Shown here piece by piece: positions 2,567 to 46,149 of a stretch of DNA of 46,168 nucleotides (position 1 is the stretch's first letter; each line of letters starts with the position of its first letter). Origin of the DNA: Candidatus Moraniibacteriota bacterium (GTDB lineage: Bacteria; Patescibacteriota; Minisyncoccia; Moranbacterales; UBA2206); contig JAUXSI010000004.1 of the NCBI GenBank assembly GCA_030679985.1, positions 1 through 46,168 of the forward strand. Direction: 5' to 3'. A program made the translations under genes and the position numbers. A model generated the notes under the pieces. That model saw only the letters and a list, made by a program, of their open reading frames with translations, was not told the origin of the DNA and ran no database searches.

Positions 2567-2679
2567 TTTAATTTTCAATTCACAATTTTCAATTTTCAAT
2601 GAATTTCCAATGACCAAATTTTCAAATTAAAAAATTGATTATTGAATTAAAATTGTAAATTGATAATTGAAAATTTAAA
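2567..2679. repeat. AT-rich 7-nt-periodic imperfect inverted repeat (hairpin element, copy 1)
   Basis: TTTAATTTTCAATT at the left pairs with AATTGAAAATTTAAA at the right; AATTTTC-type heptads; ends 5 nt before ATG 2685. Confidence 0.8.
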
Positions 2680-22228: not shown

Positions 22229-22238
22229 TTGGTTTAAG

Positions 22239-22376
22239 AATTTTTAATTTTTAATTTTTAATTTTATAAATAAATCATAATTTTTAAATTTTTAAGCCTA
22301 GCTTGAAACGAGGTTTAGAAATTGAAAATTAAAGCATTATTTAAAAATTACAAAATTCAAAAAATTACAAAATTAA
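22239..22376. repeat. AT-rich 7-nt-periodic imperfect inverted repeat (copy 2)
   Basis: (AATTTTT)n left arm, (AAAATT)n right arm, central GCCT..AGGT; ends about 7 nt before ATG 22384. Confidence 0.8.
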
Positions 22377-22383
22377 ATATTAG

Positions 22384-23702: not shown

Positions 23703-24788
23703 ATGGCGAATGGATTTAAAAATATGTTCAAGGACTTGACCGGCAAAATATTCGGCAACCTGTCCAAGGACATCGGCATCGATCTGGGTACGGCGAACAC
23801 CTTGGTGTATGTCAAAGGCAAGGGAATCGTCATCAATGAACCTTCAGTGGTGGCAATCAACAAAAAGACCGGCCAAGTCTTGGCAATCGGAAAAGAGGCA
23901 AAGAAGATGGTCGGGAAAACTCCCGGACATATCGTGGCGACGCGTCCTTTGGTGGATGGGGTCGTGAGCGATTTCGAAGTTACTGAGCAGATGCTAAAAT
24001 ATTTCATCGACAAGGTCCACCGCGACAGCTTCACTTTGTTTCCGCGGCCGAGAGTGGTGATCGGCATACCGTCTGACGTGACGGAAGTCGAGAAGCGCGC
24101 GGTGATTGACGCGGCTATGAACGCCGGTGCGCGCGAAGCCTATCTGATCGACGAGCCGATGGCGGCGGCTATCGGCGCCCGATTGCCGGTGCAGGACGCG
24201 GCAGGCAATATGATCGTGGATATCGGAGGCGGGACGACGGACATCGCGGTCATTTCATTGGGCGGAGTGGTGACTTCACGTAATTTGCGCATTGCTGGAG
24301 ACGAAATGAACGAGGATATCATCCGCTATTGCAGGGATGAATTCAATCTTTTGATCGGGGAAAAAACCGCCGAAGATACCAAGATTGCCATCGGTAGCGC
24401 TTGCCCGCAAAAAGACAAGATGCAGATGCCGGTGCGCGGCCGCGACCTGGTGACTGGCTTGCCCAAAGAGATTATTATAGACGATACCCAGGTGCGCGAA
24501 GCCCTCTCCCGTTCGATCCGCATCGTCGTCAATAACATAAAATCGACGATCGAAGAAACCCCTCCGGAGTTGCTGGCCGATATTATGCAACGCGGAATAA
24601 TTTTAGCGGGCGGTGGAAGTCTGATACGCGGTTTGGATCGCCTAGTGGCCGATCAGACCGATATGCCGGTGCGTATGATGGAAGACCCGTTGACGGCGGT
24701 GGTACGCGGTACAGGCATCGTCCTTGAGGATTTGGAAGCCCTGAAAGGCGTGCTGATGGAAAACCAGCATGAAAGATCACTCATATAG
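23703..24788 (+). CDS. mreB: Rod shape-determining protein MreB
   Basis: IGIDLGTANT, EPSVVA, EPMAAAIGA, VDIGGGTT, TPPEL. Confidence 0.97.
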   Translation: MANGFKNMFKDLTGKIFGNLSKDIGIDLGTANTLVYVKGKGIVINEPSVVAINKKTGQVLAIGKEAKKMVGKTPGHIVATRPLVDGVVSDFEVTEQMLKYFIDKVHRDSFTLFPRPRVVIGIPSDVTEVEKRAVIDAAMNAGAREAYLIDEPMAAAIGARLPVQDAAGNMIVDIGGGTTDIAVISLGGVVTSRNLRIAGDEMNEDIIRYCRDEFNLLIGEKTAEDTKIAIGSACPQKDKMQMPVRGRDLVTGLPKEIIIDDTQVREALSRSIRIVVNNIKSTIEETPPELLADIMQRGIILAGGGSLIRGLDRLVADQTDMPVRMMEDPLTAVVRGTGIVLEDLEALKGVLMENQHERSLI

Positions 24789-24789
24789 A

Positions 24790-24941
24790 AAATCCAAAAT
24801 ATAAAATTCCAAATTCCCTGCCTGCCGGCAGGCAAGCAAATAAATCACAATAGTCAAAATAAAAAATTCAAAACAGTTTTTGATTTTGAAAATTGGAATT
24901 TTACAATTTATTTAGTATTTGTAATTTTGAATTTGTGATTT
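24790..24941. repeat. AT-rich 7-nt-periodic hairpin element (copy 3) carrying a nested GC palindrome
   Basis: AAATCCAAAATATAAAATT...AATTTGTGATTT; colinear with the 16S insertion core 45626-45760. Confidence 0.85.
24817..24836. repeat. 20-nt GC palindrome CCTGCCTGCCGGCAGGCAAG
   Basis: Near-perfect palindrome embedded in AT-only context. Confidence 0.85.
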
Positions 24942-24950
24942 AAATTTTTT

Positions 24951-25760
24951 ATGCCAAAAAAATTTCTATCTGCTAAGTTAATAAAATTCACAATAGTATC
25001 AGCGATATGTTTCTTGCTGTTTTTTTGGAACCCGAAAGGGATATTCGATCCGGTCAGAATCGTTTTTTTGGAAATCGCCTATCCGTTCCAAAAATCCTTC
25101 TATATGCTCGGCCGGAGTGTGGATGAGACGTTTTCTTTTCTGGGTTCGATCGGCGAGATGAAGGGCGACAATGAGCGGTTGATACGGGAGAATGATTCCT
25201 TGGTTTCCGAAGTGGCATCGCTGCAGGAGGCTAAGCGGGAAAACGACGTTTTGCGCGAACAGCTTGACTTGGCGCCGAGAGATAAGTTTGATTTGGAGCC
25301 GTGTTTCGTTATCGGCCAGGACCCGCAAGGTTCGGGCAGTTGGTTGATGGTCGGCAAGGGGAGTTCGGATGGGATCCGGACGGATATGCCGGTTATCGTT
25401 TCTAATGGGATTCTGGTCGGAAAAGTGGATGAAGTCGGGCCCGATAGCTCGAGAGTCAGGTTATTGACCGGTTCTGAAAGCGCGGTGAACGTGAGCGATC
25501 TTGAGACAAGCGCCCGAGGATTGATCAAGGGGACGTATGGACTGGGCTTGGTTATGGATATGGTGGCTCAGGCGGATGCCTTGAACGAGGGTGATACGGT
25601 CATAACTTCCGGTTTGGGCGGGGAGATTCCAAAGGGCCTTCTGGTTGGCCGGATCCAAGAAATCAAAGCTTCGCCCGATAAACTATTTCAACAAGCCATC
25701 GTGATACCAAGGGTAAGATATCAAAAACTGGACCTGGTTTTTGTCATAAAAAACTTATGA
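24951..25760 (+). CDS. mreC: Rod shape-determining protein MreC
   Basis: TM, coiled coil (ENDVLREQL), KGSSDGI, GD.VITSGLGG..PKGL. Confidence 0.93.
   Translation: MPKKFLSAKLIKFTIVSAICFLLFFWNPKGIFDPVRIVFLEIAYPFQKSFYMLGRSVDETFSFLGSIGEMKGDNERLIRENDSLVSEVASLQEAKRENDVLREQLDLAPRDKFDLEPCFVIGQDPQGSGSWLMVGKGSSDGIRTDMPVIVSNGILVGKVDEVGPDSSRVRLLTGSESAVNVSDLETSARGLIKGTYGLGLVMDMVAQADALNEGDTVITSGLGGEIPKGLLVGRIQEIKASPDKLFQQAIVIPRVRYQKLDLVFVIKNL

Positions 25761-44512: not shown

Positions 44513-46149
<1,637 letters not shown>

Follow-up and report, generated by a model that had tools for sequence, protein, structure and literature searches.

Bacterial rRNA genes may carry intervening sequences (IVSs), of which those of Leptospira and Salmonella are examples, and the leader of the Escherichia coli rnc gene carries rncO, the autoregulatory hairpin of RNase III. 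Tandem heptamer repeats (short tandemly repeated repetitive sequences, STRR) and 'small dispersed repeats' have reportedly been described in heterocystous cyanobacteria by Elhai et al. in 2008. According to the available sections of Warrier 2016 (PMC4990558), the IVS in helix 45 of the Coxiella burnetii 23S rRNA carries an S23p open reading frame (ORF), and classical IVSs are cut by RNase III. For the candidate phyla radiation (CPR), the available text of Tsurumaki 2024 (PMC11270868) reports 23S_rRNA_IVP ORFs in insertions of both 16S and 23S rRNA genes and leaves short, ORF-less insertions that are not introns 'uncharacterized'. A further class of dispersed, hairpin-forming repeats, the REPINs (hairpins of repetitive extragenic palindromic (REP) doublets), is described together with its REP-associated tyrosine transposase (RAYT) in the available part of Bertels & Rainey 2011 (PMC3116915). 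We describe here a window of 46,168 nt (positions 1 to 46,168 of contig JAUXSI010000004.1, assembly GCA_030679985.1, Candidatus Moraniibacteriota bacterium) in which an imperfect palindrome occupying the mreB-mreC spacer (element A) and the core of an insertion in the 16S rRNA gene (element B) both represent a dispersed hairpin element of ~115-135 nt that carries no gene. The window is contig C25 of the source genome (G000), which comprises 1.07 Mb in 58 contigs, with 46% G+C and a completeness of 93%.

These elements share with rRNA IVSs the placement of extra sequence at a helix tip, ends that pair into a long stem, a patchy occurrence among close relatives and, in some members, a PF05635 ORF (here in the 16S gene of a relative, G027); the source genome also has an rnc gene. 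They differ in the 16S helix-tip site, in the gene-less copy, in arms made of 7-nt repeats and in a sequence family that is dispersed at >20 non-rRNA sites. The insertions in the available text of Tsurumaki 2024 (PMC11270868) likewise come from this lineage, measure <200 bp and have neither an ORF nor a match to an intron model, yet in that text they are not linked to dispersed intergenic repeats, and the words 'hairpin' and 'repeat' have 0 occurrences. REPINs, as the available part of PMC3116915 presents them, are also dispersed, intergenic, hairpin-forming, gene-less, ~100 nt long and evolving within genomes. Unlike them, the present family comes with no RAYT (PF01797, 0 matches in the source genome), has arms that are heptamer arrays rather than REP doublets, is connected with PF05635 and PF13366 cargo and has copies inside rRNA. 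The cyanobacterial STRR are said to form heptamer arrays in spacers with nested palindromic modules of ~20 nt, like the 20-mer within element A, but they belong to another phylum, have other sequences and are not known to be linked to rRNA insertions or cargo genes. In the literature searched, no paper was found that joins 16S insertions, dispersed heptamer hairpins and PF05635/PF13366 cassettes.

One hairpin element in an mRNA spacer and in the 16S rRNA gene

Element A begins 1 nt past the mreB stop codon and ends 9 nt ahead of the mreC ATG. Element B lies in the sole 16S rRNA gene detected in the assembly, where, as in IVSs, a conserved helix tip has been replaced (181 nt against a 3-nt loop); the helix is presumably helix 40 of the 16S rRNA (coordinates in Table 1). 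A sequence-only reading of the window had proposed that the two are the same element, and this homology is confirmed. After 21 nt had been taken out of A, the remaining 131 nt were aligned with the 135 nt of B, and 101 of the 136 aligned columns (74%) were identical, a score matched by 0 of 1,000 dinucleotide shuffles of B and by 3 of 1,000 palindromes reassembled after shuffling of the 7-nt blocks in B's arm. Moreover, an independent hidden Markov model (HMM), trained on nine other copies with A and B excluded, gave A a score of 59.9 bits and B one of 54.2 bits, against shuffle maxima of 7.2 (dinucleotide) and 38.8 (heptamer-block). The shared ends pointed out by that reading are exact: CAAAATATAAAATT occurs in A and B only, and AATTTGTGATTT at their 3′ ends and nowhere else. 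Its description of a 3-nt loop indel as the only length difference is right about the loop and slightly too strong about the rest, because three further 1-nt gaps are present.

The arms of the element consist of runs of degenerate 7-nt units surrounding a conserved CAAATAAAT / ATTTATTTG core. Identity at a lag of 7 nt is 0.55 in A and 0.56 in B (shuffle means 0.36 and 0.35, respectively; 0 of 1,000 shuffles match either), and the invariant columns of a 13-copy alignment are runs of A and runs of T. The approximately 7-nt phase of the AAA/TTT triplets noted earlier is real. Together with its flanks, B has a minimum free energy (MFE) of −64.8 kcal mol−1 (z = −8.9 relative to shuffles; 0 of 200 shuffles equal), consistent with the long stem of an IVS, and its region folds as one plain hairpin; A folds less strongly (z = −2.9). 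B has a small palindrome to either side, ACTTTGCGCATTAGCGCAAAGT in the 5′ flank and ACTTTGTTCGTTAGTGAATAAAGT in the 3′ flank, and the latter looks like a diverged direct repeat of the former.

Nested within A is a 20-nt GC palindrome, CCTGCCTGCCGGCAGGCAAG, which had been set aside as an insert. It is indeed a 20-nt insert missing from the same element of a congener (G001; MreB 99% identical), whose mreB-mreC element also has one heptamer fewer, and it represents a separate mini-repeat with 24 sites in the source genome. Three further hairpin copies contain the nested GC palindrome CCTGCCTGCCGGCAGGCAGG in the position that it has here. Sites of the 20-mer include C47:19053, C50:21224, C8:1356, C43:6509 and C47:31891 (contig and position), and at C53:1804-1960 a second small hairpin is nested within the 20-nt palindrome itself. 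Three of the sites lie in tRNA-like sequences, in which ARAGORN calls no tRNA whether the module is present or removed.

Dispersal of the family in the source genome

Copies of the family were gathered from the source genome by iterated nhmmer (E ≤ 0.01). Of the 22 loci to which the 24 hits correspond, 15 are full-length, six are partial and one is truncated at a contig end; two pairs of hits are single loci viewed from two contig ends. Six contig ends of the assembly break off inside a family copy. Eight of the full-length copies are located between co-oriented protein genes, separated by 10-14 nt from the stop codon on one side and likewise by 10-14 nt from the start codon on the other, and others are found in tRNA spacers (two), beside the transfer-messenger RNA gene (one) and in the 16S gene (one). 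A copy also occupies the spacer between nusB and rnc (G000:C38:5162-5284). The family is thus present in rRNA and in mRNA spacers, as had been supposed from the window, and in tRNA spacers as well. A wholly palindromic element at 22 dispersed loci also has the terminal inverted repeats and the many copies of a miniature inverted-repeat transposable element (MITE).

One-arm half copies lie inside long ORFs at four sites (G000:C31:23603-23666, C26:36601-36659, C20:1283-1341 and C37:6571-6654), where they seem to be read in frame. The 23S rRNA gene is found on a separate contig (G000:C21:6479-9649) and measures 3171 nt against 2925 positions of the Rfam model; its AT-rich, palindromic insertion at gene positions ~2280-2400 does not belong to the A/B family.

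Turnover and exchange among relatives

Among 23 genomes of the order, the part of the 16S gene around helix 40 is long (155-232 nt) in 11, intermediate (112-132 nt) in four and short (74-81 nt) in eight. Among the short ones is that of a member of the same genus (G002), in which the flanks are 99-100% identical to those of the source genome and the helix itself measures 47 nt against 194 nt; the insertion is therefore sporadic among close relatives, as IVSs are. In the long forms, an AT-rich hairpin is bracketed by two small palindromes that resemble diverged direct repeats; those at the 16S copy have ACTTTG in common. The two similar palindromes may represent a duplicated palindromic target or else a designed junction. 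The flanking palindromes (ACTTTG...CAAAGT) can pair locally or with each other, and the layout also occurs in four other genomes (L032, L034, L038 and L047).

Comparable turnover was observed in spacers. At the spacer of copy C18a, the element of G001 is nearly identical, whereas G002 has a different heptamer hairpin, and in the spacer after C18a tandem units have been altered in concert between congeners (TTCCAAA to TCCCAAA). Where the earlier reading had called for empty-site alleles, short or different alleles were found in congeners.

Hairpins were further compared by locus and by genome at three loci (16S helix 40, nusB-rnc and mreB-mreC). The mean local score was 28.6 for hairpins at different loci of the same genome (n = 24) and 21.6 for those at the same locus of different genomes (n = 354), an excess that was reached by 0 of 2,000 label permutations. 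Since hairpins at different loci of one genome are more alike, sequence moves between loci within a genome. Together with the allelic differences between congeners, this comparison shows that copies have spread, and have been exchanged, from site to site at the DNA level. Matches also occur elsewhere in the phylum. When the 135-nt core was searched against 401 evenly sampled genomes of the phylum, the source genome included (E ≤ 1e-6; two candidates scored per genome), a match was present in 63. Two intergenic copies in one genome, which belongs to another family, are 80% identical to B across all 135 nt.

Cassettes carrying PF05635 and PF13366 genes

The source genome contains four PF05635 genes ('23S rRNA IVS protein', a four-helix bundle) and one PF13366 gene (PD-(D/E)XK, GxxExxY-type). 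Three of the PF05635 genes and the PF13366 gene are each the only gene in their spacer and are enclosed by inverted arms of short repeats, and the inverted repeat of the PF13366 cassette is a perfect 39 bp. A GxxExxY-type nuclease, which had been suggested as an alternative cargo, is thus found between inverted arms. This PF13366 gene (G000:C15:1641-2030) has arms of ACGAAAC-type units with two extra direct copies of the left arm ahead, and its cassette is immediately preceded by a promoter of consensus form (TTGACA-17-TATAAT) and by a terminator-like hairpin.

In G001, the arms of a PF05635 cassette match the A/B-family HMM (left E = 4.7e-12, right E = 0.0016). Because this gene sits between A/B-family arms, the earlier idea that the gene-less element is the non-autonomous form of four-helix-bundle elements is directly supported. 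The spacer that holds this cassette has different contents in each of three congeners: a PF05635 gene in the source genome, a PF05635 gene in G001 that is only 50% identical to it, and a PF13366 nuclease gene in G002; the genomes are homologous as far as the last codons of the gene upstream, and again from the ATG of the gene downstream. In G027, a PF05635 ORF with arms of 7-nt units lies inside the 16S gene, the classical layout of an ORF-bearing IVS. Some members thus encode a PF05635 protein, as among IVSs (G027 and G001), while B itself is gene-less.

The window holds a second case of this kind. The arms of the hairpin at 22229-22383, between frr and an M50 protease gene, are identical to those of a PF05635 cassette of the source genome (G000:C37:3223-3726) at 49 of 59 and 53 of 70 positions, and 0 of 1,000 shuffles reach either score. 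By its arm sequences, the hairpin is this cassette minus the gene, its gene-less twin. Among 41 relatives, PF05635 is present in 29 and PF13366 in 22.

Further observations concern relatives that carry such genes. The 1965-nt Rfam 16S match of G027 includes the PF05635 ORF, and just past its 3′ end a domain of a group II intron is matched (RF01998, 48.9 bits; L042:1021-1134). In a distant genome (G289), a PF05635 gene at L202:363-752 has inverted arms of the GTAAC type and a GC-rich hairpin nested in the ORF, and an A/B-family copy is present 250 nt downstream of this gene.

A hairpin in the rnc leader

The source genome encodes RNase III (C38:5282-5989), and the copy in the nusB-rnc spacer lies directly ahead of its gene, rnc. 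A hairpin of at least 20 pairs is present in this spacer in 21 of 30 genomes of the order, at a conserved position; 19 of the 21 show lag-7 periodicity, and their unit sequences differ between genera. A long, position-conserved hairpin in the rnc leader recalls rncO. Unlike rncO, the hairpin here (the copy at G000:C38:5162-5284) is a copy of a dispersed repeat and has no match to rncO in sequence or in Rfam. A stricter hairpin test (MFE z ≤ −3 together with lag-7 periodicity) was passed by 7 of 26 nusB-rnc spacers, compared with 3 of 114 among the remaining co-oriented spacers of these loci and 2 of 28 among mreB-mreC spacers, relatives not being independent samples. Given the hairpin in the rnc leader, RNase III is the likely processor of all such hairpins, the 16S copy included.

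For the 16S copy and for one of the tRNA-spacer copies (C8), the sense strand folds much better than the antisense strand (MFE −31.6 versus −17.8 and −30.1 versus −19.1 kcal mol−1, respectively). G·U pairs and sense/antisense MFE reveal no general strand bias. Counts of promoter and terminator motifs are at chance level, and no terminator-like site is present at A or at the rnc copy.

The nusB-rnc spacers L079-L108 (G000:C38:5148-5165 in the source genome) nearly all start with a T-run followed by AAAT (TTATTTTTTTAAAAT and similar), even where the hairpins differ, and genus-wide a TATAAT overlaps the nusB stop codon. A missing Shine-Dalgarno site after the elements was considered as a special feature and ruled out, as the motif is rare throughout the source genome: among 708 ATG-start ORFs of ≥100 aa, only 74 have a GGAG/GAGG-type motif within 22 nt upstream. 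Shine-Dalgarno sites seem to be little used in this organism.

Origin and fate of the hairpins

Taken as a whole, the observations are probably best explained, with somewhat better than even confidence on our part, by a dispersed, gene-less member of a class of hairpin cassettes that is transcribed and cut by RNase III. In this class the loop may hold a PF05635 or a PF13366 gene, the architecture of ORF-bearing rRNA IVSs, and the gene-less copies are most likely derivatives that lost the loop gene. A transcribed element would form an RNA duplex of ~40-55 bp, and cutting of this hairpin by RNase III is the most likely course. In 16S helix 40 the cut would excise the insert without religation, as in classical IVSs; in operons it would separate cistrons; and in the rnc leader it would feed back on RNase III synthesis. 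For the spread of copies, a cargo nuclease acting in trans may be guessed at as one possibility. The earlier reading of the element as a mobile, ORF-less relative of IVS-protein elements is largely supported.

A wider and distinctly more tentative proposal can be built on this. Heptamer-armed cassettes might constitute an undescribed class of selfish DNA that carries an Avd-like four-helix-bundle gene, a PD-(D/E)XK nuclease gene or no gene, and that settles in transcribed spacers and at rRNA helix tips because removal by RNase III hides its cost. The class might then be the source of classical rRNA IVSs, the rnc copy might tie the supply of RNase III to the hairpin load, and the paired palindromes beside the 16S copy might be a duplicated hairpin target, pointing to a structure-specific inserting nuclease. 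We regard this combination as possible but doubtful.

Several results weigh against a mobile, RNase III-cut cassette. As to mobility, none of the families PF01797, PF07282, PF01609, PF00665 and PF00078 (Y1, TnpB, DDE_Tnp_1, rve and reverse transcriptase) has a match in the 93%-complete source genome, and no clear target-site duplication was seen at the spacer copies. The paralogues of the source genome have a median identity of 0.77 and a maximum of 0.88, with no near-identical copies among them, so there has been no recent burst. As to the cargo, none of the source genome's own cassettes has A/B-type arms (scores 18-26, shuffle maxima 24-30.5), and neither PF05635 nor PF13366 was found in 8 of the 41 relatives. 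The rnc-leader hairpin is present in four of these eight, and a long helix 40 in one; a hairpin can therefore be kept without cargo genes. As to the RNA, a preference for folding of the sense strand is found in only 5 of 10 mRNA-spacer copies and 12 of 21 nusB-rnc hairpins. The arms of a copy pair with each other no better than with arms of different copies (−27.5 versus −29.9 kcal mol−1; 4249 of 5,000 permutations at least as good), and RNAalifold, applied to 13 copies, gave 16 consensus pairs of which three have a double change, on a MAFFT alignment that is poor in the inner arms. Because own arms pair no better and covariation is weak, the pairing looks inherited from a palindromic ancestor and is not visibly maintained. 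Finally, three metatranscriptome runs (X8, X7 and X10), which speak neither for nor against excision, do not cover or bridge 45613-45777, their contigs being short and from mixed organisms and the sides of the joint measuring 20-27 nt.

In one alternative, the family is the same but RNase III plays no part: the 16S copy would stay in the mature rRNA and form an expansion segment on the solvent-facing side of the head, and the mRNA copies would be stabilisers or partial terminators. The insert does sit at a helix tip and must be tolerated in the only 16S gene found, the long layout of helix 40 with its two flanking palindromes recurs in 11 of 23 genomes, and no cut is seen in the RNA data, whose short, mixed-organism contigs do not cover the insert. 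Yet a role as terminator fits poorly with the lack of a terminator-like site at A or at the rnc copy, the hairpin ahead of rnc, present in 21 of 30 genomes, is a pointer to RNase III, and classical IVSs of the same build are cut by this enzyme according to the available sections of Warrier 2016 (PMC4990558). We consider this alternative unlikely on balance, though it deserves to be taken seriously.

Cutting by RNase III aside, the hairpins might never have moved at all, each having arisen in place by compensatory slippage, during replication, of 7-nt units in the two strands of a functional stem and resembling the others through a common slippage bias. Single units do change, as in the 7-nt indel between the source genome and G001 and in the concerted change from TTCCAAA to TCCCAAA; the hairpin between nusB and rnc stays in place although it varies in sequence; and no transposase was found. 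But A and B are collinear over 131-135 nt, including their non-repetitive ends, the CAAATAAAT core and the AAAAC..GTTTT loop, and only 3 of 1,000 heptamer-block palindromes align as well. Slippage in place also leaves unexplained the full-length, 80%-identical copies in a genome of another family and the cargo genes between arms of the same family, and it predicts covariation of a copy's own arms, the opposite of what is observed. It is accordingly held to be improbable.

Movement by conventional means is more improbable still. If the element were an ordinary MITE or REPIN, mobilised by a classical transposase (of an insertion sequence or a RAYT) encoded elsewhere in the genome, its copies would be short, palindromic, dispersed, intergenic and gene-less, as they are; however, PF01797, PF07282, PF01609 and PF00665 are not found in the source genome, no target-site duplication is seen, and the genes between such arms are PF05635 and PF13366.

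Hardly any weight is given to a misjoining of a repeat copy into the 16S contig, for although the six contig ends within copies indicate that the repeat disturbs assembly, a 584-nt contig of DNA run X1, possibly from the source sample itself, covers 45235-45818 with 0 differences, long inserts occur at the same helix tip in 10 other, separately assembled genomes, and the flanks of the insert pair to close the helix. A self-splicing intron or other ribozyme is just as hard to credit: CPR 16S genes often hold group I or II introns (Tsurumaki 2024, PMC11270868, in the available text), but no intron family reaches its gathering score in the window, A has no match at E ≤ 1, the single match in B is a chance one (13.6 bits; cut-off 65), and the fold is a single plain hairpin. 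The word 'self-removing' in the earlier reading is not supported.

If a transcribed, RNase III-cut cassette is the true explanation, three puzzles would come into one frame, namely the origin of rRNA IVSs, the short ORF-less insertions in CPR rRNA genes and the role of PF05635 and PF13366 (GxxExxY) proteins. Such short insertions distort 16S surveys of these bacteria. The hairpins also name concrete candidate substrates of RNase III in organisms not yet growable alone, and they suggest a testable idea, the post-transcriptional splitting of operons such as mreBCD in bacteria with minimal genomes. In practice, the repeats break assemblies and make 16S helix 40 ~150 nt longer than the short helix of a congener.

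Other heptamer hairpins in the window

The earlier reading had counted four co-oriented copies of the element in the window. Two hairpins other than A and B do exist, and both are flanked by co-oriented genes (Table 1), but the A/B-family HMM (E ≤ 0.01) recovers neither 2567-2678 nor 22229-22383: the design is common to all four, the sequence family is not.

Table 1. Hairpin elements and associated genes in the 46,168-nt window.
Feature	Position	Strand	Source
Hairpin with TTTTCAA-type units, spacer between a glycosyltransferase gene and a Wzz-like gene	2567..2678	+	
Heptamer hairpin of reverse polarity, between frr and M50 protease gene	22229..22383	+	
mreB (PF06723)	23703..24788	+	Pfam
Element A, imperfect palindrome of 152 nt occupying the mreB-mreC spacer	24790..24941	+	
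Nested 20-nt GC palindrome CCTGCCTGCCGGCAGGCAAG within element A	24817..24836	undefined (.)	
mreC (PF04085)	24951..25760	+	Pfam
16S rRNA gene	44513..46149	+	
Small palindrome ACTTTGCGCATTAGCGCAAAGT, 5′ flank of B	45604..45625	+	
16S insertion of 181 nt, in place of a 3-nt helix loop at Rfam small-subunit (SSU) model positions ~1149-1172	45605..45785	+	Rfam SSU alignment
Element B, heptamer-armed hairpin of 135 nt, core of the 16S insertion, same family as A	45626..45760	+	
Small palindrome ACTTTGTTCGTTAGTGAATAAAGT, 3′ flank of B	45761..45784	+	

The hairpin at 2567-2678 has 45-nt arms that are 78% complementary, and it occupies its whole spacer.

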